From an uncultured bacterium (lineage in GTDB: Bacteria; Margulisbacteria; WOR-1; CAVSGV01): a stretch of DNA of 64,000 nt. The notes beneath the pieces were generated by a model, which worked only from the letters and a program-made list of their open reading frames with translations, searched no databases and was not told the DNA's origin. The stretch is from contig CAVYHE010000008.1 in the NCBI GenBank assembly GCA_963768305.1, positions 194,001 to 258,000 of the forward strand, read 5' to 3'. This document shows positions 16,912 to 63,544 of the stretch, in pieces; positions within the stretch are counted from its first letter, which is position 1, and each line of letters starts with the position of its first letter. Position numbers and translations under genes: made by a program.

Positions 16912-16921
16912 AGGATGGATT

Positions 16922-20170: not shown

Positions 20171-20178
20171 ATCCCCCG

Positions 20179-20207
20179 TTCAAAATTCCCTCAAACTGGT
20201 ATATAAT
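20179..20207 (+). promoter_or_regulatory. sigma-70-type promoter of ppdK (TTCAAA-N17-TATAAT with TGG extension)
   Basis: Sequence match located 40 nt upstream of the ppdK start. Confidence 0.5.
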
Positions 20208-20247
20208 GTACGGGTTTCTTGTAAAAATTTAGAAAGGCGGAAATAAA

Positions 20248-22954
20248 ATGGCAAAGGCAAGAAAAGGCTCAGGCTCATCAAAGGGAGGAAAAAAATACGT
20301 TTATTACTTCGGCGACGGAAAGGCCGAAGGCAACGGGCAGATGAAGGACCTTCTAGGGGGGAAAGGCGCGGGTCTCGCCGAAATGACGAACACCGGCGTG
20401 CCGGTGCCGTCTGGTTTCACCATCACGACAGAGGTCTGCAACATATTCTATAAGGTGGGGAGCAAGGTCCCTGCGGAAGTCACAAAACAGCAGGCAAAAT
20501 ACGTCGAGACCCTTGAGGGTTCCATGGGGGCCAAGCTCGGCGACCTGCGAAATCCCCTTCTGGTTTCGGTAAGATCGGGTTCGAAATTCTCAATGCCGGG
20601 CATGATGGACACCATCCTTAACCTTGGACTTAATGACGAGACTGTCCACGGCCTGATAACGAAAACAAAGAACGAAAGGTTCGCTTATGATTGCTACAGG
20701 CGCTTCATCCAGATGTTCGGCAATGTCGTCCTGGAGATGGAAAAGAACGAATTCGAGCACATATTGCAGGGCAAAAAGGAAGAGCTCGGCGTGATACTTG
20801 ACACGGACCTCAAGGCGGATGACCTGAAGGACCTGATATTAAGATACAAAAAGACCGTGAAAGAATCGACTGGAAGCGATTTTCCCCAAGACGCAAGAGT
20901 GCAGCTTGATATGGCGCGCGACGCCGTCTTCAAGTCTTGGATGAACCCCAGGGCAATCACTTACCGGAAGCTGAATGATATTCCGAACAACCTCGGCACC
21001 GCCGTCAACGTCCAGGCCATGGTCTTCGGGAACATGGGCGATGATTCGGCCACCGGCGTGGGATTTACAAGGAACCCCGCGACCGGGGAGAATAAATTCT
21101 ACGGCGAATACCTTACGAACGCCCAGGGCGAGGACGTGGTCGCCGGCATAAGAACGCCTCAGCCGATAACAAAGCTTGAAAAGGAGATGCCGTCGGTTTA
21201 CAAACAGCTTAGGGCGATAACCTCAAAGCTTGAAAAACACTACCGCGATATACAGGATTTCGAATTCACCATACAGAAAGGCAAGTTATACATGCTGCAG
21301 ACCAGGACCGGCAAGAGGACCGCTCCGGCGGCCGTAAGGATAGCCGTTGAGATGGTGGATGAAGGCCTTATAACAAAAGAGGAAGCGATACTCAGGATAG
21401 ATCCGGCGAGCCTCGATCAGCTTCTCCATCCGGTCATCGATCCTAAAGCCAAGGTGAAGGTTATAGCAAAAGGCCTTCCCGCTTCGCCGGGAGCCGCCAC
21501 CGGGATTGTGGTGTTCACCGCCGATGAAGCCGTGAAAAGAGCAGCGGAAAAGACGATACTTGTCCGCAATGAGACCTCTCCCGATGATATCCACGGCATG
21601 GACGCTGCGCAGGGGATCCTGACCGCAAGGGGCGGCATGACATCCCACGCCGCCGTGGTCGCGCGCGGAATGGGGAAATGCTGCGTTGCCGGCTGCGAGG
21701 AAATAAAAGTAGACGAAAAAGGAAAAAAGTTCAGCGTAAAAGATTGCGTTGTCAAAGAAGGCGACTGGATCACGCTTAACGGGACCACGGGCGAGGTCAT
21801 ACTTGGCCGCGTTCCTACGATCGAGCCTTCCCTGTCAGGAGAATTCGGCGAAGCTGATGAAGTGGGCTGATTCATTCAGGAAAATAGGCGTCCGCGCGAA
21901 CGCGGATATCCCTCATGACGCGCATGTAGCGAGAGGTTTCGGGGCGGAGGGAATAGGACTTTGCCGCACGGAACACATGTTCTTCGCCGAAGACAGACTG
22001 CCTCACATGCAGGCAATGATCATGGCAAAGACCGAGCCGGACAGGCGAAAAGCGCTTGCAAAACTTTTGCCGATGCAGCGAAGCGACTTCATGGGCCTGT
22101 TCAAGGAAATGAAGGGATATCCCGTCACGATAAGGCTGCTCGATCCGCCTCTACATGAATTCCTGCCAAAGAGGGAGGATTTGATGGTGGAGATCGCTGT
22201 CCTTAAGGCGACCGGGGGCGACAAAGAAAAGATAGCCCAAAAAGAAAAAATACTGGAAAGAGTGGAAGATCTGCATGAACTGAATCCCATGCTTGGGCAT
22301 CGCGGCTGCCGCCTTGGCATCGCTTATCCGGAAATAACCGAGATGCAGGCTCAGGCCATCATAGAAGCCGCATGCGAGCTTAAAAAAGAAGGGATGAAGA
22401 TCATCCCCGAGATAATGATACCTCTCGTCGGGCACATTAACGAGCTGAAGAACCAGAAAACGATAATAAAGAAGATCGCGGAAGAAACGATAAAGAAATA
22501 CGGAAGCAAGGTGGAATATAAGATCGGCACAATGATAGAGCTTCCCAGGGCGGCTGTCACCGCCGATGAGATCGCCACGGAAGCGGAATTCTTCTCGTTC
22601 GGAACAAATGACCTAACGCAGACCACCTTCGGGTTCAGCAGGGATGATGTCGTCAAGTTCCTTAACAGCTATATTGACAAGGGCATACTGGAAAAAGACC
22701 CGTTCGCGACGCTCGACCAGGGCGGGGTGGGCAAACTTGTGAAGATGGGGGTCGCGGGAGGCAGGTCGGTTAACAAGCACTTGAAGATCGGTATCTGCGG
22801 AGAGCATGGCGGAGATCCGGCATCGGTGGAATTTTGCCACAGGACCGGTCTTAATTATGTAAGCTGCTCTCCATATCGAGTTCCGATCGCGCGCCTTGCG
22901 GCAGCGCACGCGGCAATAAAAGAAAAGTCAAAGGTCCATTATACGACAAAGTAG
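20248..22954 (+). CDS. ppdK: pyruvate, phosphate dikinase (frameshifted)
   Basis: PPDK N-terminal ATP-grasp region, phosphohistidine region ([15 protein letters not shown]) and C-terminal PEP/pyruvate domain. An extra G near 21848 (GAATTCGGCGAAG versus expected GAATTCGCGAAG giving [15 protein letters not shown]) splits the gene into 20248-21870 and 21749-22954. Confidence 0.9.
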
Positions 22955-26036: not shown

Positions 26037-27091
26037 ATGAAAGAAGGAACGAATTTAAAGACGTTGAAGAATGCCGGCGAGAAGAAGGGATATCTTACTC
26101 CGGAAGAGATAATGTCCATTTATCCGGAGCCGGAGAAGAACATTGCCGAGATAGAGGAGCTTCTGACGCACGGCATAGAAATATCCGAGAACAAAGATAA
26201 GAAGATAGCGCCTTCTCCGGAAGAAACGAATCTTGACGTCACCGAAACAGAAGTAAAGAGCGCCGGCATAGACGATACCGTCAGGATGTACCTGAGGGAG
26301 ATAGGGAAATACAAGCTTCTTTCCCCCACGGACGAGATAGACTGCGCAAGGAAAGTTCGCGCTGGAAGCCTGAAGGACAAGCACAGGCTTACGAATTCGA
26401 ACCTGAGGCTGGTCGTTTCAATCGCGAAAAAATATACGGGCCGCGGGATGCTTTTCCTTGACCTGATACAGGAAGGCAACCTGGGATTGATAAGGGCTGT
26501 GGAAAAATTCGACCACAGGAAAGGGTATAAATTCAGTACTTACGCCACGTGGTGGGTAAGACAAGCAATAACGCGTTCTATAGCCGACCAGGCGCGAACC
26601 ATCAGGATCCCCGTTCACATGGTGGAAACCATGAACCGCCTGAGGAAGGTTTCGCGAACGCTCCTGCAGCAGCTGGGAAGGCGTCCCACCGAGGAAGAAA
26701 TAGCGAAAAGGTCCAGGATGTCGGTGGACAAAGTACGGGAGATAATAAAGATCTCGCAGATACCGCTTTCGCTTGAAATGCCTGTCGGTGACGAGGATTC
26801 TTCGCGCCTTGGCGATTTTGTGAAAGACACCGCCGTTCAGGCGCCGGATGAAGTGGTCCTTCATGGGCTATTAAGGGAAGACCTTGAGGAAGTAATGTCA
26901 TCGCTTTCTGACAGGGAAAAGACCGTGCTTAAGCTAAGGTTTGGCCTTGATGACGGCCAGCCGAGGACCTTGAAGAAGTTGGAAAAGTTTTCAATGTCAC
27001 CCGCGAGAGGATACGTCAGATAGAAGCGAAAGCCTTGAGGAAATTAAGGCATCCTACCCGCAGCAAAAAACTTAAGGAATATCTTAGATAA
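26037..27091 (+). CDS. rpoD: RNA polymerase sigma-70 factor (primary sigma, frameshifted near C-terminus)
   Basis: Region 2 ([27 protein letters not shown]...[17 protein letters not shown]) and region 3 are present. Region 4.2 ([28 protein letters not shown]) lies in the -1 frame. One missing G near 26975 breaks the gene. The tracked ORF ends early at 27023. Confidence 0.9.
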
Positions 27092-27097
27092 AGAGTT

Positions 27098-28038: not shown

Positions 28039-28110
28039 GGCCCCATCGTCTAACGGTTAGGACATCAGCTTTTCAAGCTGACGATCGGGGTTCGATTCCC
28101 CGTGGGGCTA
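28039..28110 (+). tRNA. tRNA-Glu (anticodon TTC)
   Basis: Cloverleaf with anticodon loop TTTTCAA and T-loop TTCGATT. G1:U72 wobble at the acceptor end. Confidence 0.8.
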
Positions 28111-28209
28111 TTTAATTTAGGGGAGCTTCTTGGAATGAGGCTGAGAACTTCGATTTAATCGGAGGACCCGACAACTTGATCAGGATAATGCCTGCGAAAG
28201 GAGACAAAA

Positions 28210-29178
28210 GTGAAAAAAGAAAACCTGCCCGAACTTGGAAAGATACCTCCCGAATTTTTCGACCGCGTCATTTATCCACGGTTAGGCGCAAAAAATAAGA
28301 ACATCATGATCGGTCCGAGACATGGGGTCGATTACGGAGTATTAAAGGTCGGCTCAAAGTACATGGCGATGTCCACCGATCCATTCTTCATAGTCCCGCA
28401 ATTAGGCTTTATGAAAGCCGCGTGGTTCGCTTTTCATATTATATGCAGCGATGTCGCCGTATCGGGGCTGAAACCTGAATATCTGGCGATCGATCTTAAT
28501 CTGCCGCCCGAAATGACAGAAGCTCAGCTGGAAGAGATGTGGGAGACCGTGCACGAAGAATCAAAAAAGTACGACATTAGCATAATCACCGGTCATACCG
28601 CGCGATATACCGGATGTAATTATCCGATGGTCGGAGGAGCGACGGCGATAGCTATCGGCACAAAGAAAGAATTGCGCGGCCCTTTCAGGGTAAGGACCGG
28701 CGACCGGATAGTCATTACAAAAGGGCCGGCAATAGAAACGACCGGACTTTTAGCCGTCTTATTTCCCGACAGGTTCATCAGGGCAGGCGGAAAAGCTTTT
28801 CAGAAAGAAGCCGCTGGCGTTTTTGATCAGATGTCAGTGATGGATGATTGCGCGATAGCACGTGGATTGGAAGGGGTTCGAGTGATGCACGACGCGACCG
28901 AATGCGGCATATGGGGCGGGCTTTATGAAATGGCAAGAGCCGGAAATTACGGTCTGATGATAGAAGAAGAGCTGATCCCTATTCAGCCGGTGATCAAGAA
29001 AACAGCTGAACTGTTCGATTTTGACCCGTTCTGCGCAATAAGCGAGGGGACTTTACTGGCTATAGTTGATAAAAAAGAAACGGACAAGTTAATCTCAGCG
29101 TTCAGGAAAAATAGAATCTTAAGCGCGGTCGTCGGCGAAGTTGTCGAAAGTAAAAAAGGGATAAAGATCAAGAACTGA
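28210..29178 (+). CDS. AIR-synthase-related (PurM-like superfamily) protein of unknown role (HypE/ThiL-like)
   Basis: 322 aa with a PurM-like N-domain (GVDYGVLKVG...AMSTDPF) and C-domain. GTG start. Confidence 0.6.
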   Translation: MKKENLPELGKIPPEFFDRVIYPRLGAKNKNIMIGPRHGVDYGVLKVGSKYMAMSTDPFFIVPQLGFMKAAWFAFHIICSDVAVSGLKPEYLAIDLNLPPEMTEAQLEEMWETVHEESKKYDISIITGHTARYTGCNYPMVGGATAIAIGTKKELRGPFRVRTGDRIVITKGPAIETTGLLAVLFPDRFIRAGGKAFQKEAAGVFDQMSVMDDCAIARGLEGVRVMHDATECGIWGGLYEMARAGNYGLMIEEELIPIQPVIKKTAELFDFDPFCAISEGTLLAIVDKKETDKLISAFRKNRILSAVVGEVVESKKGIKIKN

Positions 29179-34189: not shown

Positions 34190-34217
34190 TGAAATTTCCC
34201 GGCAAATGCGTCGATAA
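34190..34217 (+). promoter_or_regulatory. SigD/FliA-type promoter (TGAAA-N17-CGATAAT) of paralog-array copy 1
   Basis: ATGAAATTTCCCGGCAAATGCGTCGATAATAT. Confidence 0.55.
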
Positions 34218-34292
34218 TATGATTGAGGTGGCGCATGAGCGGTTCATCCCATATAGAATTATCCGGTATGACCGAAAGGAGAAGCTGATCCC

Positions 34293-35222
34293 ATGGAAGA
34301 TATAACGCCTGTAATTGGGGGAAAGGTGCCCAGGCGCTGGGCGCACGATCAGTTCCAAGAAAAAATAAGAGTGCGGCTGAGCGGTCCCCTGCATTCCGTC
34401 CTGTTACGCGGTATCCCTGTCATCATCTCATTCAGGGCGTACGCACAGGACGTTCCAAATGATATCCGCAATATCAATGAACTTTCAGAGGGCTGTACAG
34501 GAAACAGTGGCATAAGAACGAGGATATATTTCGGATCTTTGAAAAAGCGCTGACGCTGCTCTCCGCTGCAAAGATCGACCAGGAGCAACATTACAATTAT
34601 GAGTTGGACCTGGGAAAACTTGCGAACGCGTATCTTGCGGTGAATGCACTTTATAAAAAAGATGAGCCCGAGCTCCATAAAAAAGCCGTCGAATTCCTCA
34701 AGAAACCGATGAGGAGCGGGTCATTCCACTTGCTCAGGGAGACAGGCGCGGCAAGGAGGGTTTACGAATCGCCCGTTTTCATGCGTTTCAAGCGCCAATC
34801 CTGCACATTGTCCGAATTAAATGTAATGACCGGGGAATGGTTCGGGAAGCTGATCAGGGAGCTGCATGGTTCAGGCGTTCTGCTCAAGCCCGCGCTTAAA
34901 AAAGAGCTCATGGACCAGTTTACAAGCTATGAGCAGATCTTATATATGTTCTCGGAGCATCTTTTCTGCAATTACCTTGCGACTGACGGGCGATCGATGA
35001 GGCTCCTGAAAAGGTCAATGGAAGCCGCCGCCTCGGCGGCGCGGGACCCTTTGCCGAAAAAAAAGACATCATGCTGGACCTGTCCATTCTCATGCCGGAA
35101 AAATTGAAGAAGCTTAAGATAAATGAAACGAAGATCGAGGATATCATTGAATGCACGGATAACAGATCGGTGACGCAGTTCCTGGTCGAGGCCCGCGCGC
35201 TGGGAAATCGGACACTGCAATA
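34293..35222 (+). CDS. paralog-array copy 1, family Y protein of unknown function (two frame disruptions)
   Basis: Homologous over its full length to copy 4 (36851-37701). Carries the conserved NEDIFRIFEKA and GAARRVYESP motifs. There is a frame break near 34535 and another in an A8 run near 35065. The tracked ORFs 34293-34553 and 34604-35107 plus the tail to 35222 belong to one gene. Confidence 0.6.
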
Positions 35223-35245
35223 ATATAACTTTTTTCTGCTCTTGC

Positions 35246-35274
35246 TGAAATTTTCGCCCTATTTTAACGATAAT
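35246..35274 (+). promoter_or_regulatory. SigD/FliA-type promoter of paralog-array copy 2
   Basis: CTGAAATTTTCGCCCTATTTTAACGATAATATT followed by an AAGGGGG Shine-Dalgarno and the ATG at 35292. Confidence 0.55.
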
Positions 35275-35291
35275 ATTATAAAGGGGGAATT

Positions 35292-36232
35292 ATGAACAAA
35301 ATTGGGCATGCCTATTAAAGAGAAGTCTGGAAGGCTGCGTGAGAGACCAGAAGAATCCTGAGACTAATCAAAACATACATGGTCCGAAACCCATCGAGTG
35401 CTTCAAAGAGCTCATAGACCAATTTAACAATGTTAAGGCAAAATATCAATTCTGGTTGACATTTAATAAAGAGCAGGATCAGATGAAAATGGATTGGCCA
35501 AGATAATAATAAATCACCCTTACAAAAGAAGAAATTGCAGGAACTATTTAAAGGGCCATAAAGGTCAACAACCATATCGCGGTCAGAAAACTGGAGACTG
35601 TTAAATCCGCTTATTGCCTTAACCTTGAATATGACTACGAATTGGACCTCGAAAACACTCACAGAAAGATCATACCCTTATAATTCAAGAAAAAATGAGC
35701 TTGGATCAAACGCCGATAGTTTCCTGATGTCGTAAACACAGACGAAATAACAGGTATTTATGATGAGCCGCTGGGAACATTAAGGACAATGGGTGTCATG
35801 AAAAGAAAATATGATCCGCCGATATTTCCTTTCATCCCTAAATCTTGTTTCGTTGCGACCCTTACAGAAATTAAAAACATGTGCGGCGCGTGGTTTGGTT
35901 TCCATTTTGAGTTCGCCGAAAAATCAAATGTCCAATTGAATTTCCTCGGACAGGAAACATCCAACATTGAAGATCTTGCCATAAAAATTAAAAAGCATCA
36001 TCTTTCAGAGGACGGCAGGACGCTTCTGCTTTTTCAAAAAGCTGTTCGAGCGGCGATCTCGTATAACTCAGGAAGATTGACCAAGATAACCCTTGATCTT
36101 TGGCAGGTGACGCCGAAAAAGCTTGAGGAAAAAAACATCAGCGAAAAAGATGTTGAGGATTTGATTGACAATAAGGATAACGGCGCCATTATCAGATTTT
36201 TAAGGGAAAAGATCGGCGCGCTAATAATTTAA
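35292..36232 (+). pseudogene. paralog-array copy 2, family Y (N-terminal half disrupted by stops and frameshifts, C-terminal 147 aa intact)
   Basis: MNKIGHAY then a stop. Fragments RAIKVNNHIAV...EYDYELDLENTHRKII (35552-35691) and the 35789-36232 ORF align with copies 1 and 4. The antisense ORF 35315-35662 in the track is spurious. Confidence 0.55.
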
Positions 36233-36233
36233 C

Positions 36234-36767
36234 ATGCCTAAATACATGAATGTTAGAAGTGCACATGTCAAGTTGGTATACACCCGTCGACGCTATCAAA
36301 CTGTTGCGATGACCGGAATATTGCCCAAGTGCCCCGAAGATATGTCCCAAAAAATAAACCGCAAATTCGAACCGCATCTCTTTAACGCCCTGCAAAGCAA
36401 AACCTCGATATTTTTCGGGGAAACCTGCGTATCATCCTCCAGGGCCCTTGCAATGATCATACACGGATATGAAACAAGGTGCCCAAAAACCAGGATCGTT
36501 TTTTCAGATGACAAATTGAACATGCTGCTGAAAGCGATAAAGATCGCCGGCAAAGCCAACAGGAAAATTCTCGGTTCGCGCGATAAGGACTACTTATACC
36601 ACGTGCAGCTTGGAAAACTGCTTCCGACTCTGAACAAAATGGCGTCCTTTCAGCGAAAACTGAATGCTTTCAAGGGTCAGGAAAATGAAAAAGCCGCATT
36701 GACAATATTAGAGGAGATGGGCGCCATTGATTTGAAGTATTCGCCGCAAGCACCTGATTTCATATAA
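36234..36767 (+). CDS. paralog-array copy 3, family Y, C-terminally truncated variant
   Basis: 177 aa. A continuous reading frame across the region where copies 1 and 4 are broken (MIIHGYETRCPKTRIVFSDDKLNMLLKAIKIAG). Ends just after the Y-SP motif (AIDLKYSPQAP). Starts 1 nt after the copy 2 stop and has no promoter of its own. Confidence 0.55.
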   Translation: MPKYMNVRSAHVKLVYTRRRYQTVAMTGILPKCPEDMSQKINRKFEPHLFNALQSKTSIFFGETCVSSSRALAMIIHGYETRCPKTRIVFSDDKLNMLLKAIKIAGKANRKILGSRDKDYLYHVQLGKLLPTLNKMASFQRKLNAFKGQENEKAALTILEEMGAIDLKYSPQAPDFI

Positions 36768-36803
36768 TTCCCGCCTCCTCAACCCTTATTTTCCGCTTTC
36801 CAC

Positions 36804-36831
36804 TGAAATTCCCTCTTTATTTTGACGATAT
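36804..36831 (+). promoter_or_regulatory. SigD/FliA-type promoter of paralog-array copy 4
   Basis: CTGAAATTCCCTCTTTATTTTGACGATATATAT followed by a GAGGGA Shine-Dalgarno and the ATG at 36851. Confidence 0.55.
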
Positions 36832-36850
36832 ATATATAGAGGGAAAATAT

Positions 36851-37701
36851 ATGGTTATTGAACAAGCGGGCAGGGTTTTTGGCCTCGTGAGAATGAACTA
36901 CATGAGCGCCAGGATCAAAACCAGAATATCCGGAAGGTTCGAAGGTCTTCTGAAAGAAGCTTCAACCCTAAAAACGTCCGTTAGTTTTTACGGCATTATG
37001 ATACATAATGCCGGGGAATGTCCAGGGTAATCGCCGGCCGCAGATCGGACATCAATGAGGATACCCTGCATATTTTTGAGAAAGCCATTAAAACTAACAA
37101 CGCTTCATTCGCTGCGGATTATGTGTCTGAATTGGAGCTGGAAAACCTGCTTCCTCATCACCTTTCAACATATATACAGCAAAATAAATTAAATGACTTC
37201 CTGAAAAGCGAAGATCCGGCCTTATCGCTCGCCATTCTCAGAGAGTTCGGCGCGGCAAGAAGATTATATTATTCACCGATGAAATTATTCCGCGAGTCAG
37301 GATGGATCAATAATTCAAAAGATGTTTATGACCTTACGGAACACCATTTCGGCGGGCTCGTACAGAAAGCGATGGAATCGGGCATCGTAGTAAAGATCAA
37401 CTTTGGCACTGTCAAGGGAATCGAAGACCTGTCAAAGGCGATCTGGGTTAATCATCTTGCCGAGGACGGGCAAACTTTCCTAATGTTAAAAAAGGCGCTC
37501 GAAAACACTATTTCAGATGCGAAAAGGAATCAGCAAATGTTATATACTCTTGACCTTGGCTATTTGGTCCCAAGCCATGCTAAAGTAAATGGCGGCTTGA
37601 ATGACGCCATGATAGACAACATCATCGATGAAAAAGATCCCAGTATAGTGTATGGATTTCTTGTCCAATATCGGGTGCTCGATCTAAGATACCGCAGTTG
37701 A
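36851..37701 (+). CDS. paralog-array copy 4, family Y (one frame break near 37020)
   Basis: The 59-aa N-terminal ORF (MVIEQAGRVFGLVRMNYMSARIKTRISGRFEGLL...) and the 37018-37701 ORF (MSRVIAGRRSDINEDTLHIFEKAIK...GAARRLYYSP...) together align with copy 1 and copy 3. Confidence 0.6.
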
Positions 37702-37718: not shown

Positions 37719-39860
37719 CTACTTTATCCCCAGCGATTTTAAAGTTTCAGCGGAAGCTATTATTTTTCGGGGTTTATTGTCATTCTCAAGCGCCGAGACC
37801 ACACCCGCGGCCTCCATCTCATCCATCAGCCGCGCGGCGCGGTTGTAGCCGATCCTCATCCTTCTCTGCAGGTGCGAAGTGGATGCCTGACCGCCCGTGA
37901 CTATTATCTTAACCGCTTCGGCGAACAGGTCGTCATGCCCGCCCTCAGTCGATACGCTCCCTGATTCCCCCGCTCCGTACTCGATGTCGATGATCTCCTG
38001 AGAATACTGCGGCTGGGCCTGTTTCTTTATAAAATTCGTTATTTTTTCCACTTCATTATCGGAAACGAACGCGCCTTGCAGCCTGAACGGCTTCATCGCG
38101 CCTACCGGATGATAAAGCATATCTCCCCGCCCCAAAAGCTTTTCGGCGCCCGACATATCTAGTATTACGCGGGAATCCACCTGAGTCGCCACAGCAAAAG
38201 ATATTCTTGACGGGATATTTGCCTTTATCAATCCCGTGATGACATCTACGGACGGCCTCTGCGTCGCAATGACAAGGTGAATGCCTGTCGCGCGCGCCAT
38301 TTGGGCAATGCGGCATATCGTCGTTTCAACTTCCGTGGCGGCCACCATCATCATGTCCGCGAGTTCATCCACGATTATGACGATATAAGGCAGTCTTTCC
38401 ATTTCCTTTGGCGACCTGTCGGCTTTCGCGTTAAAAGCTTCCAGGTTCCTGACTCCGGCCGAGTAAAATGATTTATAGCGACGGTCCATTTCGCGAAGGA
38501 CCCATTCCTTTAACGTCCTCGATGCTTTTTTCGGGTCGGTCACGACAGGGGCAAGAAGGTGCGGGATATCATTATAATGCGTGAATTCAACCATCTTGGG
38601 ATCTATCATCACGAATTTCACTTCATCGGGCCTCGCCCTTAAAAGGATGCTTGTGATCAGCGTGTTTATGCAAACGCTTTTCCCCGATCCGGTCGTTCCG
38701 GCGATCAGCAGGTGTGGCATTCTTGTCAGGTCGCCGTAGATAGGCGTCCCGGAAAGGTCTTTGCCGATGCCGATAAGGAGTTTTGAATGATGGTTCTGGA
38801 ATTCTTCGGTCTTCGCTATTTCTCTAAGTCTTACCGGAGTTATCGATGGATTAGGCACTTCTATGCCCACTGCCGCTTTTCCGGGAATGGGTGCTTCTAT
38901 CCTTACGCCCTGAGAGGCAAGGTTCAGCGATATGTCGTCGGCAAGGTTCGCGATCCTGCTTACCTTAACTCCCGGCTCAGGCTGGACCTCGTATCTTGTA
39001 ACAGCAGGCCCCTGATGAACAGCGATGACAGAAGCTTCTATCCCGAACGATCTCAAGGTTTCTTCAAGTGCTCTCTTGCGGATCTCAATTGTCTCCTTCA
39101 TCTTTTCTTCCCTCTGGCGGTCCCTGTCCGTGGGGCTGTCCAGAAGTTCCAAAGGAGGAAGCTCGTACCTGCCAAGTTTCTTCGGGGTGATGACGGACGG
39201 TCTTGACGCAGGTCTCTCGACCGGCTTTTTTTCTTCATGCGTCTCAAGCTCGAACGCCGCGTTGTTCAATTCTTTTATTACGGGGATCATCGATGGTATT
39301 GACCTTTTCTCCTCCGCCTCTTCCATCCTTTGCTTCGGCCTTTGCCTTCTTTTGAATATCATGTCCCACAGTCTTGAAATTGAGTGGGTCAGAGTGATGT
39401 TGAATATCAGTATCAGTGAAATGAGGAAGATCGATGACAGTACGACATACGCTCCTGTGGTCCCGAATATCCCATTCAGTCCGCCTTTGATAACGGCACC
39501 CAGGTACCCGCCATCGCCGTAGGAGATGAGCGTTGAAAAGAGAAGGATAATGCCCAGGAACTGGGCTGTAATGATTATGAACTGCTTCCTGAGCATGAGG
39601 AGCACGCCGAAAAGTCCCAGGAAATACGGCAGCATATAAACGCCTATGCCGATCAATGGCTTCAGGAATTTGCGGATGACGTAAAGCCCCATCAGTCCTG
39701 TGGATGATCCGGATCCGGAGCTGGTGGATATGAATATGAAAAGAGCCAGGGCGATAAGCAGTATCCCTATTATGTCCTGACTTAAGTGAGAGGGTTTTCT
39801 ATATTTCTCGAATTTCCGCTTTCTGGCCAATCCTTGTACCTCGCGGAAATTATAGCACAA
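37719..39860 (-). CDS. ftsK: DNA translocase FtsK/SpoIIIE
   Basis: N-terminal membrane domain and motor domain with Walker A GTTGSGKSV. The C-terminal gamma winged-helix is present (QASTSHLQRRMRIGYNRAARLMDEME). Confidence 0.9.
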   Translation of the reverse strand: MCYNFREVQGLARKRKFEKYRKPSHLSQDIIGILLIALALFIFISTSSGSGSSTGLMGLYVIRKFLKPLIGIGVYMLPYFLGLFGVLLMLRKQFIIITAQFLGIILLFSTLISYGDGGYLGAVIKGGLNGIFGTTGAYVVLSSIFLISLILIFNITLTHSISRLWDMIFKRRQRPKQRMEEAEEKRSIPSMIPVIKELNNAAFELETHEEKKPVERPASRPSVITPKKLGRYELPPLELLDSPTDRDRQREEKMKETIEIRKRALEETLRSFGIEASVIAVHQGPAVTRYEVQPEPGVKVSRIANLADDISLNLASQGVRIEAPIPGKAAVGIEVPNPSITPVRLREIAKTEEFQNHHSKLLIGIGKDLSGTPIYGDLTRMPHLLIAGTTGSGKSVCINTLITSILLRARPDEVKFVMIDPKMVEFTHYNDIPHLLAPVVTDPKKASRTLKEWVLREMDRRYKSFYSAGVRNLEAFNAKADRSPKEMERLPYIVIIVDELADMMMVAATEVETTICRIAQMARATGIHLVIATQRPSVDVITGLIKANIPSRISFAVATQVDSRVILDMSGAEKLLGRGDMLYHPVGAMKPFRLQGAFVSDNEVEKITNFIKKQAQPQYSQEIIDIEYGAGESGSVSTEGGHDDLFAEAVKIIVTGGQASTSHLQRRMRIGYNRAARLMDEMEAAGVVSALENDNKPRKIIASAETLKSLGIK

Positions 39861-40097
39861 AAGGAATTAGGGCTAAAGCATCCTCATTTCTGTCAATTCC
39901 TAGTTTTAAAATAATCCTGAAAAAGCGGGAGTTTGAAATAGATCAGGAATGATCAATCGATATAAGAATTCCAATAAGCTTGATTCCACTTGCCAAAAGC
40001 GATACATATATTTTTCAATGTTCGGGAAAGATCCGATATCGGAGAGCGGGCCCGGAGCAGATCCGGGTGTTCCTCTAAATATTGCGTTACATCACTT

Positions 40098-40598
40098 TCA
40101 TCTAACGAACTTCAACGGTTCAAGTCCGGGAGTGATCTTTATCCAGGAATCCTTATCCCGAGGACCTGTCAACATAGCCGTACTAAGCAAATGATTGTGG
40201 AAAAGAGAAAATGTTTTTATAAAATATTTATATGGATCTGGTTCGTGAATTGAGGTTGATTTTGCTTTTAAGTATTCGAGATCGGATATCCAGACAACTC
40301 TTTGAAGTTTATTGCAAATATCAAGAATTTTCGCGCTTCGATCTTCTACGGTAAATTTCTTTACCTTCCTGATATTATCAAAAGGGACCCCGGCAGATAT
40401 AAATGCTTTGCGCACGAGGCTTGCGCGCTCCAAGAACTCGATCGAATGCTTTCTGGGCAGAACTCCCAAAGCTTTTGCGGTTTTCCGATTTACCCTGATG
40501 AATTGACAACCGCTATCACCGCCACTTATGTGAACAAAGGGAATATCTCTGCGGCAGTTGATCCTAAGAAAATCTTCCGGCATATCTTTCCTCCTCAA
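40098..40598 (-). CDS. family A paralog 1, hypothetical protein with conserved C-terminal W-I-K-I-T-P-G-L-E-P-L motif
   Basis: 166 aa with a TTG start and AAGGTG Shine-Dalgarno. Shares RRDIPFVHISGGDSGCQFIRVNRKTAKALGVLPRKHSIEFLE and the C-terminal DSWIKITPGLEPLKFV with the 41389-41958 protein. Confidence 0.55.
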   Translation of the reverse strand: MRRKDMPEDFLRINCRRDIPFVHISGGDSGCQFIRVNRKTAKALGVLPRKHSIEFLERASLVRKAFISAGVPFDNIRKVKKFTVEDRSAKILDICNKLQRVVWISDLEYLKAKSTSIHEPDPYKYFIKTFSLFHNHLLSTAMLTGPRDKDSWIKITPGLEPLKFVR

Positions 40599-40622
40599 AT
40601 TTTGACACCTTTAACTGTTTAT

Positions 40623-40649
40623 TTATCGACAAATCATGCCGAAAATTCA
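40623..40649 (-). promoter_or_regulatory. SigD/FliA-type promoter variant (TTGAAT-N16-CGATAAA) of family A paralog 1
   Basis: Reverse complement TTGAATTTTCGGCATGATTTGTCGATAAAT. Confidence 0.45.
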
Positions 40650-40840
40650 ATTTTTCTAATCTTTTTCCCCGTGTCTTTTCAAAACATCAAGAATATGAGC
40701 TGTAAAAGCCCTTTCGCTTTCCCTTTCTGCATTAAAAGTTGAGATCGCAAATGAATCTTCATCATAGGGAGAGCTTATAACACGGGAATCCCCTTTCGTT
40801 TCACTTGCAAAGGTCCTTTCCTCTAACCGCATTGCAGAGC

Positions 40841-41179
40841 TTAAAAGTTTGAGGGCTTCTTGATGAGCACTGAGACCGGATTTAAGCAGAGTATCGATAT
40901 TGCCGTCAATCCTCTCTTTAACAAAAATGTGGCTAAGATCATTGGCCGCGATCTGGAATTTTTAAGTTTATTAACATTGCGTGGTGCTTCCAGGGACTTT
41001 TTGTAAGTAATGCGCAATTTTTCTATCCTTCCAGCGAGCATTGTTACATTAACCCCGCTATTTGAAATTTGAGGAGCAAGCCGGCTTCTAACCGCAAATA
41101 AAGGTTCCCTGACGATTTTCCTTAGCATATTTAGCCCTTTCGGGAGGTGAAGAGCCCCTATGTTCATTTTTATCATCAA
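40841..41179 (-). CDS. family A paralog 3 (diverged, shorter)
   Basis: 112 aa. The N-terminus MIKMNIGALHLPKGLNML...LAPQISNSG resembles the N-terminal region of the two longer paralogs. It lacks the C-terminal ITPGLEPL motif. Confidence 0.4.
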   Translation of the reverse strand: MMIKMNIGALHLPKGLNMLRKIVREPLFAVRSRLAPQISNSGVNVTMLAGRIEKLRITYKKSLEAPRNVNKLKNSRSRPMILATFLLKRGLTAISILCLNPVSVLIKKPSNF

Positions 41180-41216
41180 AATCCCTCCTTAATCATCACT
41201 GAACTGTTCTCCTTAT

Positions 41217-41244
41217 ATATCGTTAGCATTCTTTAAAAATTTCA
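41217..41244 (-). promoter_or_regulatory. SigD/FliA-type promoter of family A paralog 3
   Basis: Reverse complement GTGAAATTTTTAAAGAATGCTAACGATATATAAGGAG. Confidence 0.5.
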
Positions 41245-41388
41245 CTTTTTTGGCAATGATTATTAGGCGAAAATCCGATAAAAGCTTTTTTATTACCGGA
41301 TCTGATGGCGCCAAAATGTTTATTGATAACGCTCAGTTGCTACCCGGTCTTATTGATAAGCCAGTATGTAAGTCTTTAATTCCTGCCA

Positions 41389-41958
41389 TCAGAGTTCTTT
41401 CTGATGTTTTATTAAATAATCCTTTACGGCATTTTTGCCTACAAAACTTAATGGTTCAAGGCCGGGAGTGATCTGGATCCAACAATCCCTGTCAGATGGT
41501 ATCGTTAATGCGGATCTGTTGAGTAAACGCATTTCAAATATGGAAAATGCTTCCTTAAGATATTGATGAAGATCTATGCTGAGATTATTGTGAATATCAA
41601 TACGTAAAAAGGCGAAGTCCCGTTCATTAAAGATGTTCGTGAATTTATCGCACACTTTGAAGACTTGGTTGCCGAGAGCTATTGAGGCGCGTAATTGCTC
41701 CACCCCGTTCATTTTGGAAAGATCTAATTGTGCATCATTGATAAAAGGATTTGATCCCGAGGAAGATATGAATGTTTTGATCAGGAGGGACTGGATCTCC
41801 AAATGCGCGAGCGGATAACTGCGCGGGGCGAGCCCGAGAACTTTTGCAGCCCCAGCATCAATTCTTATTTCTTTCCTGCCGGATAGTCCCCTGCTTATGC
41901 GGCCAAAGGGAATATTTACGTTCAAACTAGCCGCCCTGAGAACTTTTGATATACTCAT
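41389..41958 (-). CDS. family A paralog 2, hypothetical protein with C-terminal W-I-Q-I-T-P-G-L-E-P-L motif
   Basis: 189 aa. NVNIPFGRISRGLSGRKEIRIDAGAAKVLGLAPRSYPLAHLE and the C-terminal DCWIQITPGLEPLSFV are shared with paralog 1. Confidence 0.55.
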   Translation of the reverse strand: MSISKVLRAASLNVNIPFGRISRGLSGRKEIRIDAGAAKVLGLAPRSYPLAHLEIQSLLIKTFISSSGSNPFINDAQLDLSKMNGVEQLRASIALGNQVFKVCDKFTNIFNERDFAFLRIDIHNNLSIDLHQYLKEAFSIFEMRLLNRSALTIPSDRDCWIQITPGLEPLSFVGKNAVKDYLIKHQKEL

Positions 41959-42011
41959 ATAACTGCCTTCTTCCTTGATAATTTGACCTGTTCACTCTCT
42001 AATACGTTATT

Positions 42012-42039
42012 TTATCGGCAATATTTGCGAAAAATTTCA
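42012..42039 (-). promoter_or_regulatory. SigD/FliA-type promoter of family A paralog 2 (perfect GCCGATAA -10)
   Basis: Reverse complement GTGAAATTTTTCGCAAATATTGCCGATAAAAT. Confidence 0.55.
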
Positions 42040-42126: not shown

Positions 42127-43008
42127 CTATCTTGATCTTTCCCACTTATCGAACATGACAATAAGCGGGCTGGCGACGAAAATGGAAGAATATGCTCCGC
42201 AGGTGAACCCGATGAACAGCGTCAGCGCGAAATCCTTTATCGTGGCGCCGCCAAAAATGAGCAGCGAAAGGTTCATGAAAAGCACGGTCAGCACAGTGTT
42301 TATGGATCTCGCCATCGTCTGATTGACCGCTTCGTTCACAACGTCCCCGAACGGCTTTTTGGAATAGCCCGGCTTGTTCAGGTCTTCTCTCACACGGTCG
42401 AATATGACTATTGTATCGCAAATGGAATAACCAAGTATCGTAAGTATCGCCGCGATGAACCAAGTATCAATATTCCTCCACAATAAGGCCATAATTCCGA
42501 CAGTTATTGTAGCATCGTGAAGAAGAGCTATGACCGCCGCGACTGAATACTTGAATTCGAACCGGAAAGCTACATATATCAGTATGCACACTGTCGCCAG
42601 GAGAAGCGACCAGAACGCCTGACGTCTCAATTCGCTGCCCACAACGGGACCGATGGTATCCGCTTCCAAAAGCTCCATTGTGGGATACTTTTCCCTTATC
42701 CCGTCCACCATCTTCGTCCTGTCCTCCGTGGATAAAGGATCTGTGCTGATGATGATATTATTGCCTTCGGACCTCTGGATAACGCTTTCCTGCCTTCCGA
42801 ATTTGCTTAATATCACGCGGATATCGCTTATGGAAACCGCGCCGTCGAATTTAATGTTAAGGACCGTTCCGCCGGTAAAATCTATACCAAAGTTCATGAC
42901 CTTCCCTTTCATTATCCCGTTCGATAATAGGGCGAAGATCCCGAGGGCTATGAAAAAGCCAGAGAGCATGAACCACGATCTTGTTTTTCCTATGACGTTC
43001 AATGTCAT
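42127..43008 (-). CDS. secF: protein translocase subunit SecF
   Basis: 293 aa with six transmembrane helices and SecF conserved segments. Its start overlaps the secD stop. Confidence 0.9.
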   Translation of the reverse strand: MTLNVIGKTRSWFMLSGFFIALGIFALLSNGIMKGKVMNFGIDFTGGTVLNIKFDGAVSISDIRVILSKFGRQESVIQRSEGNNIIISTDPLSTEDRTKMVDGIREKYPTMELLEADTIGPVVGSELRRQAFWSLLLATVCILIYVAFRFEFKYSVAAVIALLHDATITVGIMALLWRNIDTWFIAAILTILGYSICDTIVIFDRVREDLNKPGYSKKPFGDVVNEAVNQTMARSINTVLTVLFMNLSLLIFGGATIKDFALTLFIGFTCGAYSSIFVASPLIVMFDKWERSR

Positions 43009-44348: not shown

Positions 44349-44405
44349 GTCCCTCCAAAAAACATGGTGATTATATCATGGGAGGGGGAGAATTTCAAAA
44401 ACCGG

Positions 44406-45272
44406 TCAAATGGTTCGCGGAGGCTTGTGGCGTAAGTCGATGATCATCGTATTATCGGGTTCGACAGGAATTATGTCATCCCCCTCTTCGTGAAGCACAT
44501 CATCTTTATGAAACACATGGTCATTATTGGTATCAGCGAATTTTACTGCCTTTTTTCTGCCTCCGTGAAAGCCTCGGTGAAGCTTGGTGATCTTTAGATG
44601 CGAGAGTTTCCCTGCGTAAGAGCTCATCATCCTTTCAACCTCCACTGAACCGGCGCACAAAAACCGTTGATTGGATAAAGCTCTGACAAAAACTTTTAAG
44701 ACCTTGTCCATTGTTTTTTGGGTAGCTTTTCCGCTGACCCGGACCACCAGAGTGAAATCCTTGAAGGGATCGATCCCCGGCACGGACCGCAAACCTTTAT
44801 TAAAATTCAAGTTGAAAAGGTTTGAGGGGTCTCCCTTGAACGGCTGCCATAATATCTTCACTTCAAATCCGTTAGGCACCGCATCCATGATCTCTCCAAT
44901 GTTAGTAAAAAAGTTGTGTTTGTTCAGGCTGCTTATCACTTTGCCGGGCAATTCAACCCGCTTTTCAATGCATTCTCTGAGAGGCCGTCTCGGCATTTGG
45001 AAACCTTTGCTTTGGAAACTGCCTGCGAGGCCGTTTTCCTCGATAACCTCAGCCAATCTGGGCAAAAGATCTTTCCTGACATGCTTCATGAAAGCTTCGG
45101 GATTTTGCTCGAGAGGGTTTTTTCCGCTTGGAACGATCTCATTGCTTACCGATCCCGAAGCTATGTACCCCTTTTTAGCGCTCTCAAGATGCTTCTGAAA
45201 GGGGCTGAACCTTACAGCTTCGGCATGAGACGCGTGTTTCCCGAAATTCCCGATTTTTCTTGTTGATATCAA
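44406..45272 (-). CDS. hypothetical protein (288 aa)
   Basis: TTG start with an AAGGTGG Shine-Dalgarno. No recognisable domain. Confidence 0.5.
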   Translation of the reverse strand: MISTRKIGNFGKHASHAEAVRFSPFQKHLESAKKGYIASGSVSNEIVPSGKNPLEQNPEAFMKHVRKDLLPRLAEVIEENGLAGSFQSKGFQMPRRPLRECIEKRVELPGKVISSLNKHNFFTNIGEIMDAVPNGFEVKILWQPFKGDPSNLFNLNFNKGLRSVPGIDPFKDFTLVVRVSGKATQKTMDKVLKVFVRALSNQRFLCAGSVEVERMMSSYAGKLSHLKITKLHRGFHGGRKKAVKFADTNNDHVFHKDDVLHEEGDDIIPVEPDNTMIIDLRHKPPRTI

Positions 45273-45290
45273 TATAGTTCCACCTTTATT

Positions 45291-45318
45291 ATATCGGCTT
45301 TTTGGCGTGAAAATTTCA
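45291..45318 (-). promoter_or_regulatory. SigD/FliA-type promoter (perfect GCCGATAT -10)
   Basis: Reverse complement CTGAAATTTTCACGCCAAAAAGCCGATATAAT, located 19 nt upstream of the TTG start of the 288-aa hypothetical. Confidence 0.55.
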
Positions 45319-48341: not shown

Positions 48342-49159
48342 TTAGTCTTTGAGGGTTGCCCTGTAAAGCAGGTTTTTGGGGACTTTCAGCCGTTTCGCCA
48401 CTATTTTTACCGCGTTGCTCTTCGGAATGCCAGCTTCAATAAGATCGTCCACCAGCATCTCGGGGTCTATGCCTGCCTTCTCCGGCGCTTTCTCGCCTTC
48501 GATCACAAGAACAAATTCTCCTTTGGGTTTGACCTTTGAGAATTTATCGATCATCTGAGAAGCCGTGCCCCTCGCGATCTCCTCGAATTTTTTCGTCAAT
48601 TCCCTCGCAACACACATTTTCCTGTCCCTGAAACCGCTTTTAATATCTTCAAGGGTTTCCAGGAGGCGATGAGGTGCTTCATATAATATGATCGTCCTCT
48701 CTTCACGTGACAGCTTCTCGAAAATTCTTTTCTTGCGGAAGGCTTCACGGGAGGAAAACCCTCAAAAGCAAAGCTTTCGGTCTTAAGCCCTGAAACGGAA
48801 AGCGCGGCGATCAAAGCGGACGCACCAGGGATCACTTCGATCTTAATCCCTTCGCCTGCCGCTGCTTTAACCAGCTCCTGTCCGGGATCGGATATCCCTG
48901 GCATTCCCGCGTCAGAAACAAGAGCGACTTTTTTACCCTCTTTTAATTTATTGATGATGAAAGCCGTCTTTGTCTTCATGTTGAATTTATGGTATGAGGT
49001 CGTCGGCGTTTTTATATGATATTTATCAAGAAGTATTTTCGTATGGCGCGTGTCTTCGCAGGCGATAATATCCGCTGATCTGAGCGTTTCAACCGCACGG
49101 AAAGTGATGTCCTGAATATTGCCTATGGGGGTACCTACTATGTAGAGATATCCGGCCAT
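48342..49159 (-). CDS. rsmI: 16S rRNA (cytidine1402-2'-O)-methyltransferase RsmI (frameshifted)
   Basis: N-terminal tetrapyrrole-methylase fold (YIVGTPIGNIQDITFRAVETLRSADIIACEDTRHT). The conserved C-terminus (MCVARELTKKFEE...KGEFVLVIEG) is in another frame. The break is in an A-run near 48730 (ARKEFS versus expected RKKRIFEKLSREERTIILYEAPHRL). Confidence 0.8.
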
Positions 49160-50974: not shown

Positions 50975-51601
50975 TTAATGGCTGAAATACTTTTTGACCG
51001 AACTGAACGCCTTGTTCCCCCGGCCGCTGAATATTTTAACAATATCCGCGCGATGTGTAAACAATCCTACCAGAAAATATAAAAAGCCGAATAAAACATA
51101 AGTGTTCGACATCCTAAAGCAATACATCAAGATGGGAAGGATCAGCATGCAGATAAGCGAGCTAATAATGAAATAATCCGTAACGATCGTAAAAAATATC
51201 CACCCCAATATTATGATCAGCGTTATGTAAGCGTTTATCCCGAACATCGCGCCTGTTGTAGTGGCCACGCCTTTGCCGCCGGAAAACCCCAGAAATACTG
51301 GAAAATCGTGGCCCAGGATAGCGGCAAGCCCCGCAAACCCCATCGAAATGTCAGTTCCTAATATTTTTTTTGCCAGAAGCACCGGTATCAGGCCTTTAAA
51401 AAGATCAAACGCGTACACAAGCGCTGCCAGGACAGGGCCTATAACGATAAGGACATTCGTCGCGCCCATATTGCCCGTGCCTTTTTGCCTTATGTCGATC
51501 CCGGAATTTATTTTCCCCGCAAGATAAGCGGATGGTATTGAGCCGAAAAGGTATGAAAAGAAAGTCAAGGCAGCCAATATGATCACATGATTATTGATCA
51601 A
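50975..51601 (-). CDS. plsY: glycerol-3-phosphate acyltransferase PlsY
   Basis: GTGNMGATN and GKGVAT motifs in a polytopic membrane protein. Confidence 0.88.
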   Translation of the reverse strand: MINNHVIILAALTFFSYLFGSIPSAYLAGKINSGIDIRQKGTGNMGATNVLIVIGPVLAALVYAFDLFKGLIPVLLAKKILGTDISMGFAGLAAILGHDFPVFLGFSGGKGVATTTGAMFGINAYITLIIILGWIFFTIVTDYFIISSLICMLILPILMYCFRMSNTYVLFGFLYFLVGLFTHRADIVKIFSGRGNKAFSSVKKYFSH

Positions 51602-52810
51602 GATTAAATTCTTTATGAAGCAGCTCCATCGCTTTCTTGGCCTGGTCCGCCTTTACGACGCAGGAGATCTTTATTTCCGAAGTGCTGATCATTTCCAGGT
51701 TTATTCCGTTCCTTCCAAGGACATCGAACATTGTTCCCGCGACCCCGGGCTTGGATATCATCCCAACGCCGACTATGGAAACTTTCGCGACCTTGTCATC
51801 GGAAATGACGCCTTCGGCGCCAAGCTCTGCTGCGACCACTTTTGTTACTTCGACCGCTTTTTTCATATCGGGCTTTGAGACCGTGAACGCCATGTCCGCC
51901 ATGGATCCGGATGAATGTATGCTCTGAATGATCATGTCGATATTTATTTTTTCGTTGCCCAGCGCTCTTGAATATCTTTGCGGCAATGCCGGGTTTGTCA
52001 GGTATCTTCAGTATGCCCGACTTTCGCTATATTCGCGTCGATAGCCACTCCCGATACCACATCTTTTTTTTCCATTTCAGATACCTCCTTGATATAAGTT
52101 CCTTCAACGTCAGACAAGCTGGAGCGAAGATGGATAACAAGCCCGTAATTCTTCGCGCATTCCACAGCCCTCGGATGCAGAACTTGAGCGCCCAGGCTCG
52201 CCAGCTCCAGCATTTCGTCATAAGATATGTATTTCAATTTCCTCGCATTCGTAACGATTCTCGGATCGGCGGTGTAAATACCGTCAACATCGGTGTATAT
52301 CTCGCAGACGTCCGCCTTTAAAGCCGATGCGATGACCACTGCTGATGTGTCAGACCCGCCCCTGCCAATTGTCGTAATGTCGCCGTGGCTGTCTATCCCT
52401 TGAAAACCGGTGACTACGACAATTTTCCCCTGGCTCAATTCGTGCTGTATTCTGTCCAGTTTAATATGAGTGATGCGGGCTTTGGACGGAATGTCCTCTG
52501 TGTGAACGCCTGCCTGCCATCCAGTTAATGATACCGCTTTAAAGCCAAGCGCATGTATCGCCATAGTAAGAAGTGCGGCAGAAACCTGCTCGCCCGTGGA
52601 AAGCAGCATGTCATATTCCCTTGGATCCGGGCTATCGGTTATCTGATTAAGAAGGCCGATAAGCTCGTCAGTTGTATCCCCCATGGCGGAAACGACCACG
52701 ACTACATTATTACCTGCGGCTTTCGCTGCAGTCACTCTGGCAGCGACACTTTTTATGCGCTCAACAGAGCCGACCGATGACCCGCCGTATTTTTGGACGA
52801 TCAATGCCAT
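51591..52810 (-). CDS. lysC: aspartate kinase (two frameshifts between kinase and ACT domains)
   Basis: N-terminal kinase domain (IVQKYGGSSVGS) in the 51998-52810 ORF and tandem ACT domains in the 51591-51986 ORF. The linker AKVGILKIPDKPGIAAKIF is in a third frame. Extra bases near 51990 (GGG run) and near 51965 (AAGA) split the gene. Confidence 0.85.
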
Positions 52811-63006: not shown

Positions 63007-63034
63007 TGAAATTCCCGCACAAAACTGCCGATAA
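63007..63034 (+). promoter_or_regulatory. SigD/FliA-type promoter (TGAAA-N17-GCCGATAA) of the LRR protein gene
   Basis: GTGAAATTCCCGCACAAAACTGCCGATAATGG followed by an AGGAGG Shine-Dalgarno and the ATG at 63053. Confidence 0.55.
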
Positions 63035-63052
63035 TGGCACAGGAGGAACTAT

Positions 63053-63544
63053 ATGTCCGTATTTAAGATATTTAGAGGATTAATTCCATTTAAGAAAGTG
63101 TCCGGCGGTCTTGATGCTGGGAAACACCAGCTGCATTCTCAACATACGCTAAGATATCTAAATACTTTGTCCGGTACCATACTAGGCCTCAGTATCAAGG
63201 ATAATTCAGAAAATGCGAAGACGGATATTTTAAGTAAATTTACAAAACTTCGATCCTTGACCATTTCTTGCCGTTTTGTTCATTATATTAATATTTTGAA
63301 AAAATTAGAGTATTTGGAGAATGTATGCATATATGATACTCCATTAAAAAGCCTGGAAATGTTAAGGAATCACGAAAAGATCAGGAACTTAACATTAAAA
63401 AATACTTATGTGGCAGATCTTGAACCTTTAAAGAATTGTCCAAATTTAATGTCATTACGGTTAGAAGGTAATCGTTATCTTACTAAACAGCAAATTGAAT
63501 CGCTAAGAAAAATGCTCCCGAAATGTGAAATAAAGACCTTTTGA
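63053..63544 (+). CDS. small leucine-rich-repeat (LRR) protein
   Basis: 163 aa, AT-rich. LRR consensus segments (LRSLTISC..., IRNLTLKNTYVADLEPLKNCPNLMSLRLEGN). Confidence 0.65.
   Translation: MSVFKIFRGLIPFKKVSGGLDAGKHQLHSQHTLRYLNTLSGTILGLSIKDNSENAKTDILSKFTKLRSLTISCRFVHYINILKKLEYLENVCIYDTPLKSLEMLRNHEKIRNLTLKNTYVADLEPLKNCPNLMSLRLEGNRYLTKQQIESLRKMLPKCEIKTF

Follow-up and report, generated by a model that had tools for sequence, protein, structure and literature searches.

Two paralogous genes, A and B, lie in a 64,000-nucleotide (64-kb) stretch of DNA from an uncultured bacterium, which was analyzed whole and is called the window here. Four minus-strand open reading frames (ORFs) separate secF (42127-43008) from ftsK (37722-39830): gene A, an ORF of 112 amino acids (aa), another of 58 aa, and gene B. 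Gene A (41389-41958, minus strand) encodes an intact A-type protein of 189 aa, as judged from its ORF, a profile hidden Markov model (HMM) and orthologs. Gene B (40098-40583, minus strand) encodes a B-type protein of 161 aa in the window; its coordinates come from ORF 40098-40598 re-started at ATG 40583. This ATG is most likely the true start from the sequence around it, having a GGAGG ribosome-binding site upstream and agreeing with the ortholog start MPEDF, which makes TTG 40598 an unlikely one. The two proteins are homologous (37% identity over 159 aa, BLASTP E = 1e-28). They have in common an N-terminal block, IPFxxISxGxxG...AKxLG...LE, and a C-terminal block, D(S/C)WI(K/Q)ITPGLEPL(K/S)FV, as an earlier note on this DNA had described, and both blocks recur in orthologs from other metagenomes. 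The same note counted three paralogs with an ITPGLEPL motif. The family is genuine, and WIxITPGLEP is invariant in it, but a family HMM searched against the six-frame translation of the 64 kb found exactly two members, A (E = 1.6e-85) and B (E = 2.2e-84). We conclude from these comparisons that A and B form a two-member paralog family in the window, and that they are lineage-restricted orphans.

The supposed third member is the 112-aa ORF (40841-41179, minus strand; isoelectric point [pI] 11.9), which had been taken for a diverged, shorter paralog. It is unrelated to A and B: BLASTP gave E = 1.3, hhalign a probability of 0.04%, and the family HMM was silent in all frames. No homolog of it was found in the local comparisons and profile libraries tried; the large protein database was not searched with this ORF. 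The ORF belongs to a 780-bp cassette (40596-41375, minus strand) inserted between A and B, delimited by blastn and tblastx of the interval against the related loci L001 and L002. The insert is missing from L001-type relatives, where A and B sit 33 nucleotides (nt) apart. The 58-aa ORF (40656-40832, minus strand, other frame) matches the C terminus of a 250-aa orphan of L002 (BLASTP E = 5e-5 and 8e-6) and is probably what remains of a gene, or else a gene broken by an indel. Joining the 112- and 58-aa ORFs into a single gene comparable to the L002 protein was also tried and rejected, as only the last ~57 residues align. As judged from the searches above, the whole insert falls outside the A/B family.

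Compared with L001, L007, and L009, the window has one extra nucleotide near 40100, and this 1-nt insertion ends B directly behind ...ITPGLEPLKFV. The displaced 3′ part of the gene is found at 39953-40100 (minus strand, other frame) and consists of 44 codons, DESDVTQYLEEHPDLL...NSYID*, with the stop at 39953-39955. In the alignment this displaced frame is ~95% identical to L001 DNA after the indel, and tblastn passes from frame -3 to frame -1. With the frame restored, B is 209 aa long, as in orthologs P0006 and P0007. Other genes of the window are interrupted as well. In rpoD (26037-27095, plus strand), a 1-nt deletion near 26968 (TTGGAA to TTGAA) removes region 4.2, and reading in the +1 frame restores the C-terminal end as in the 351-aa ortholog P0015. 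The rsmI/TP_methylase gene (48345-49156, minus strand) switches from frame -1 to frame -3 relative to its relatives. Aspartokinase (51591-52810, minus strand) is split into 270 and 131 aa, while relatives have a single gene of ~410 aa; two orphans, of 286 aa (36851-37701, plus strand) and 310 aa (34293-35107, plus strand), are split into 59 + 227 and 86 + 167 aa, respectively. Because rpoD, an essential gene, and rsmI are also frameshifted, assembly indels are the likely cause, and the truncation of B most likely arose in this way. An indel-prone assembly is the simplest reading, and B would then really be a 209-aa protein. ORF-level reading of this assembly is unsafe, since frameshifts strike even rpoD.

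The L007 assembly, another one with 'contig_' names, is similarly fragmented. Elsewhere in the window, two tandem sets of phosphoenolpyruvate (PEP)-utilising enzyme domains occupy 17779-22954 (plus strand). The first set is a 711-aa ORF; the second, a 540-aa ORF with an overlapping 401-aa ORF, looks like one frameshift-split gene. A response regulator at 9566-10768 (minus strand) combines a receiver domain with an AAA+ lid, and its match to sigma-54 activators is confined to the C-terminal part. Its central ATPase core was not detected, and the regulator may be degenerate or indel-broken.

Because the ratios of nonsynonymous to synonymous substitution rates (dN/dS) are 0.29-0.38 for A and B, compared with 0.05-0.07 for secF, we take both genes to be coding and under purifying but relaxed selection; both evolve fast. 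Their products are basic (pI 9.5-9.9), with no predicted signal peptide or transmembrane segment. Neither has a match in Pfam, even at E ≤ 1, or in NCBIfam, and scans of A, B, the distant homolog P0009 (below), and the neighboring cassette proteins against Pfam, NCBIfam, PADLOC, and PHROGs returned no match.

The family is very small. In ~15 billion proteins it amounts to seven sequences, consisting of close relatives and one distant homolog. The sequence of A is identical to P0001, and its orthologs are 81-85% identical to it; word-index searches yielded no more than near-identical orthologs (81-87% identity), all from a few metagenomes. An exhaustive HMMER search over 1.84e9 representatives yielded two further matches only, P0009 and P0008. 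The first is the distant homolog, a 256-aa protein (HMMER E = 4e-5; hhalign 97.6% over the whole domain) with WINTPPGLEHL as its version of the C-terminal motif and an extra hydrophobic region at the C terminus. A word-index search with P0009 returned only P0009 itself. P0008 (1,220 aa, 11 matching stretches) was rejected as a translated tandem-repeat artifact. No family members were found in GTDB genomes, whose searched representatives do not include this bacterium's own genome, in JGI metagenome contigs (two scans), or in IMG/VR viral contigs. Upstream of P0009, positions 1-330 of its locus, L006, contain degenerate ATTCG(A/C)G-like repeats, e.g., cattcgcta, gaattcgcgtgcatt, and gtcattcgagatt.

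The host was placed by its recA neighborhood. The gene order rimO-pgsA-cinA-recA-rny-ymdB is common to the window and to candidate division WOR-1 (Saganbacteria) RIFOXYB2_FULL_37_13, the best match in both order and identity (RecA, 71%; RNase Y, 69.5%). The second-best match for this six-gene stretch is a Riflemargulisbacteria metagenome-assembled genome. We conclude that, of the relatives identified by gene order and protein identity, candidate division WOR-1 (Saganbacteria) is the closest.

A common pattern, AAAAAnTGAAATTTT...nnCGATAA/T, precedes A, the 112-aa ORF, and B. The putative promoter of A (42012-42039, minus strand) is TGAAA-N17-CGATAA, which can also be written GAAA-N15-GCCGATAA; that of the inserted cassette, in front of the 112-aa ORF (41217-41244, minus strand), is TGAAA-N17-CGATAT. 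The promoter of B (40623-40650, minus strand) is a variant, TTGAAT-N16-(GT)CGATAA, one A short in the GAAA run, and the L007 ortholog carries the exact motif. Hence the view that these three ORFs have separate SigD-type promoters held up, with sigma-28-like sites in front of each. The sigma-28 consensus has GCCGATAA as its -10 element at a spacing of 15 bp from the -35 element (PMC12784957). To this -10 element A matches at eight of eight positions, B (GTCGATAA) at seven, and the middle cassette (AACGATAT) at five, with the CGA core kept. In the exact copies of the motif the -35 element is GAAA(T), placed at exactly N15; the consensus is TAAA(G), and the first base is different in every copy.

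The motif TGAAA-N17-CGATAW occurs in nine exact copies in the window compared with 0.21 expected, and none of 100 shuffles reached nine. A start codon with a ribosome-binding site lies 18-75 nt beyond every one of these copies, on the strand of the motif. The A orthologs in L001-L005 and L008-L011 have kept the motif in front of them, as have, more generally, the orthologs in every related locus and P0009 in L006; in 80 unrelated recA loci the motif was found once. Genes behind it in the window are rpoD, A, B, the 112-aa ORF, a 288-aa orphan, a 157-aa orphan, a small leucine-rich repeat (LRR) protein, and three members of another orphan paralog family (34.2-37.7 kb). None of the motif-driven genes in relatives has a Pfam match. 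Canonical sigma-70 promoters (TTGACA-17-TATAAT, 11 of 12 matches) are also present in the window, upstream of secD, a dGTPase-like gene, and a nucleotidyltransferase gene. We conclude from these counts that the promoter class is real, distinct from sigma-70, and not private to A and B, with at least nine transcription units in the window. The best reading is that a sigma-28-like alternative sigma factor uses these sites and governs a broad orphan regulon. A palindromic operator, GAAAtTTTC, inside the motif was considered and rejected, as the length of the T-run differs among copies.

The likeness to sigma-28 sites (FliA/SigD/WhiG) lies in the nnCGATAA -10 element 15 bp downstream of a GAAA/TAAA -35 core, in the T-rich tail, and in the separation of the class from the organism's canonical sigma-70 promoters. 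The differences are the first base of the -35 element, G rather than T, the unusual density of 9-10 sites in 64 kb, and the targets, nearly all of them lineage-specific orphans together with rpoD. Non-flagellar sigma-28 regulons exist, such as the late genes of Chlamydia or the WhiG regulon of Streptomyces. A literature search on Saganbacteria and flagella gave no useful result.

A rather unlikely alternative is that the motif is not a sigma-28 site at all, being either a lineage-specific form of the housekeeping promoter (GTGAAA-N18-GATAAT) or the site of another alternative sigma, e.g., of the extracytoplasmic function (ECF) type; in that case A and B would simply be orphans whose expression is strong, constitutive, or induced by stress. 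The occurrence of the motif before rpoD fits this alternative, as do the resemblance of nTGAAA and GATAAT to TTGACA and TATAAT and the fact that neither a FliA gene nor flagellar genes were seen. ECF sigma-W-type promoters have the form TGAAAC-N16-CGTATA, and in its spacing TGAAAT-N16-CGATAA agrees with promoters of the ECF type. However, canonical promoters such as TTGAAA-17-TGnTATAAT stand upstream of secD and two other annotated genes; all nine sites have CGA, rather than T at -12; and none of the nine has the ECF AAC in its -35 or CGT in its -10 element. Furthermore, the -10 element of A is exactly GCCGATAA at N15 from GAAA, and the targets, rpoD excepted, are all orphans. We retain the sigma-28-like reading.

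Several of the other genes behind the motif deserve description. The 288-aa orphan (44406-45318, minus strand; motif promoter 45291-45318) lies directly upstream of secD; its 326-aa ortholog is 43% identical, compared with 92% for the adjoining secD. Between the two genes, at 44370-44398, is a near-perfect extended sigma-70 promoter, TTGAAA-17-TGnTATAAT. The second orphan paralog family lies beyond ftsK (34190-37701, plus strand) and is represented here by ORFs of 167, 147, 177, and 227 aa; its intact relatives are 286, 310, and 326 aa long. Exact copies of TGAAA-N17-CGATAW are at 34190, 35246, and 36804. Identity between orthologs is only 35-66% in this family, compared with 75-95% for the housekeeping genes on either side. 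The 163-aa LRR protein (63007-63544, plus strand) also lies behind TGAAA-N17-CGATAW. Its N terminus, RGLIPFKKVSGG, resembles the B block RRDIPFVHISGG (8 of 12 residues identical, BLAST E = 0.46), a likeness due perhaps to chance, perhaps to an N-terminal module common to both.

The secF-ftsK interval is a variable island with four architectures among syntenic loci. The window has A, then the 780-bp insert, then B. Loci of the L001 type have A and B, with the 33-nt spacing, and then orphan paralogs of 270, 271, and 197 aa; the L002 type has A followed by the 250-aa orphan; and L007 has B alone. The three tandem orphan paralogs (L001 11330-13557, also in L008-L011) are related to one another with pairwise E values from 1e-12 to 1e-39 and have no match in Pfam, PADLOC, or PHROGs. 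We conclude from the comparison of loci that the interval between secF and ftsK is a hypervariable cassette island. Such an island might be an array of conflict cassettes (immunity, toxin-antitoxin, or anti-phage), with A and B as immunity- or antitoxin-like binders. Presence/absence polymorphism and shuffling of cassettes among close relatives, a separate promoter for each cassette, small size, fast evolution, and a slightly lower GC content (0.40 versus ~0.47) are all consistent with this idea. We nevertheless consider it quite unlikely: no cassette protein has a PADLOC, PHROG, or Pfam match, no toxin, integrase, or secretion gene is adjacent, there are no viral relatives, and this native promoter class is also at work in front of unrelated orphans in other parts of the genome.

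The earlier note had also suggested, as a speculation, that the A/B proteins carry a PilZ-like signature for binding cyclic di-GMP, in which case they would be c-di-GMP receptors of the PilZ type that sigma-28 controls, comparable to the flagellar brake YcgR. The proteins are indeed small, RxxxR occurs in two of three subtypes, a short distance ahead of the ISxG block (RINCR in B, RNFSR in P0009), and the promoters are sigma-28-like, so that control of this kind may exist. Yet none of six members matches PilZ (PF07238) or any other Pfam family even at E ≤ 10. RxxxR is absent from all A-type sequences, which have RAASL. The stretch aligned to (D/N)xSxxG is HISGGD in B, RISRGL in A, and HLSRSH in P0009; in none of the members is position 1 a D/N or position 6 a G. 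The spacing from RxxxR to the ISxG stretch is ~7 residues, compared with 20-30 in PilZ. Consistently, the AlphaFold2 model described below has nine helices and five strands of 3-4 residues, a predicted helical alpha/beta fold instead of the six-stranded PilZ beta-barrel. A Foldseek search of the PDB with the model gave a best E of 0.87, which is not significant, and no PilZ among the 50 matches listed. Nor were flagellar genes seen nearby. On the profile searches and the model, by which the note itself had proposed to judge the idea, we reject PilZ domains for A and B, and we regard c-di-GMP reception under sigma-28 control as extremely unlikely.

Structure prediction was run on two targets. 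Modeling of A by AlphaFold from 6 sequences came first; its predicted local distance difference test (pLDDT) score was 43, and the result was unusable. AlphaFold2 on the 209-aa B ortholog P0007, with 7 sequences including P0009, gave a pLDDT of 78 and a predicted template modeling (pTM) score of 0.74. The modeled strands, at 16-19, 28-30, 45-47, 146-149, and 158-160, are arranged around helices and coincide with the two conserved blocks. In the model the N-terminal block (IPFxxIS/xIRVD/AKxLG) would form a strand-strand-helix unit, and the C-terminal WIxITPGLEPLxFV a hairpin. The two would be structural partners contributing to one small sheet on a helical scaffold; the blocks may be conserved together because both would build this sheet.

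Foldseek against BFVD gave no significant match either (best E = 0.37), and PDB sequence searches with full-length and N-terminal profiles gave none. The best PDB sequence match of the N-terminal element was the Cdc48 N-domain GRKIVRIDRQTAARLGV, at a non-significant E of 0.076. This match points to the cradle-loop barrels (the swapped hairpin of AbrB/MazE/SpoVT; the Cdc48/VAT N-domain), in that the A/B element G-x-x-x-I-R-(I/V)-D-x-x-x-A-K-x-L-G-(V/L) is weakly like the Cdc48 segment and the beta-alpha-beta unit of such barrels, and A and B are also basic. The N-terminal strand-strand-helix element also resembles GRVVIPIELRRTLGI of AbrB. In contrast, A and B have no Pfam or Foldseek match, and the remainder of the modeled protein is a helical bundle foreign to those families. 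We treat the likeness to cradle-loop barrels, seen at the level of short sequence elements, as a lead only. With a modeled fold that has no match in the PDB or in viral structure sets, A/B is a candidate new fold or domain.

Taken together, the explanation we favor, with moderate confidence, is that A and B are orphan paralogs in a cassette island, that they belong to a sigma-28-like regulon and may contain a partner-binding module, and that the truncation of B is most likely an assembly indel. Under this explanation both genes would be part of the large regulon of a putative alternative sigma-28-like sigma factor, a regulon made up mostly of lineage-specific accessory proteins rather than flagella. 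Their products would be soluble, basic, and non-enzymatic, with a predicted core of four to five helices and a small beta-sheet, and the conserved N- and C-terminal blocks together would make one binding surface. With low confidence, we suggest that this module binds a partner, DNA or protein, and that the proteins act as small regulators or adaptors, a role proposed on the basis of the model. The C-terminal tail varies: there is none in A, a long amphipathic helix is predicted in B, and hydrophobic membrane-type segments are present in P0009. The variable tail might set localization, again at low confidence.

A number of observations weigh against this explanation. On the side of the promoter, rpoD is the only sigma gene seen (the longer ORFs of the 64 kb were scanned, not every ORF), and the motif stands upstream of rpoD as well. 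The -35 element is GAAA and not TAAA. No flagellar or chemotaxis genes were seen in the window or the related loci, and there is accordingly no evident FliA regulon of the classical kind. On the side of the protein, the functional proposal rests on the 7-sequence model, the 6-sequence model of A having reached a pLDDT of only 43. The shared sheet of the N- and C-terminal blocks was derived from a secondary-structure string and not from coordinates, and the only sequence hint of a known binding module is the non-significant match to the Cdc48 N-domain (E = 0.076).

More tentatively, and with some doubt on our part, this relative of the WOR-1 lineage may run a large non-flagellar sigma-28-like program of fast-evolving, cassette-borne orphans that feeds back on rpoD. 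The program would include the A/B family with its previously unseen fold, the 286/310/326-aa family, the LRR protein, and others. If true, this would be a stage- or interaction-specific accessory-proteome regulon in a candidate phylum. Alone, A and B add two further hypothetical proteins. The promoter class is more interesting than the paralogs themselves: it marks fast-evolving orphan genes, rpoD excepted, and offers a sharply defined, strongly enriched handle on what may be the regulon of an alternative sigma factor, in an uncultured sister lineage of the Cyanobacteria.

Other features of the window were recorded along the way. The turns in GC skew were considered as a sign of a replication terminus and rejected, as the skew tracks gene orientation. 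A low-GC patch at 15718-17629 (plus strand; 0.31-0.35 versus ~0.47) carries genes for a D12-class N6-adenine methyltransferase and an EcoRI-family endonuclease, which probably represent a type II restriction-modification system gained by horizontal transfer. Finally, a thiamine pyrophosphate (TPP) riboswitch at 28109-28219 (plus strand), scoring 55.2 bits, just over the gathering score, comes directly after a tRNA and lies upstream of an AIRS-family (ThiL-like) gene at 28210-29178.

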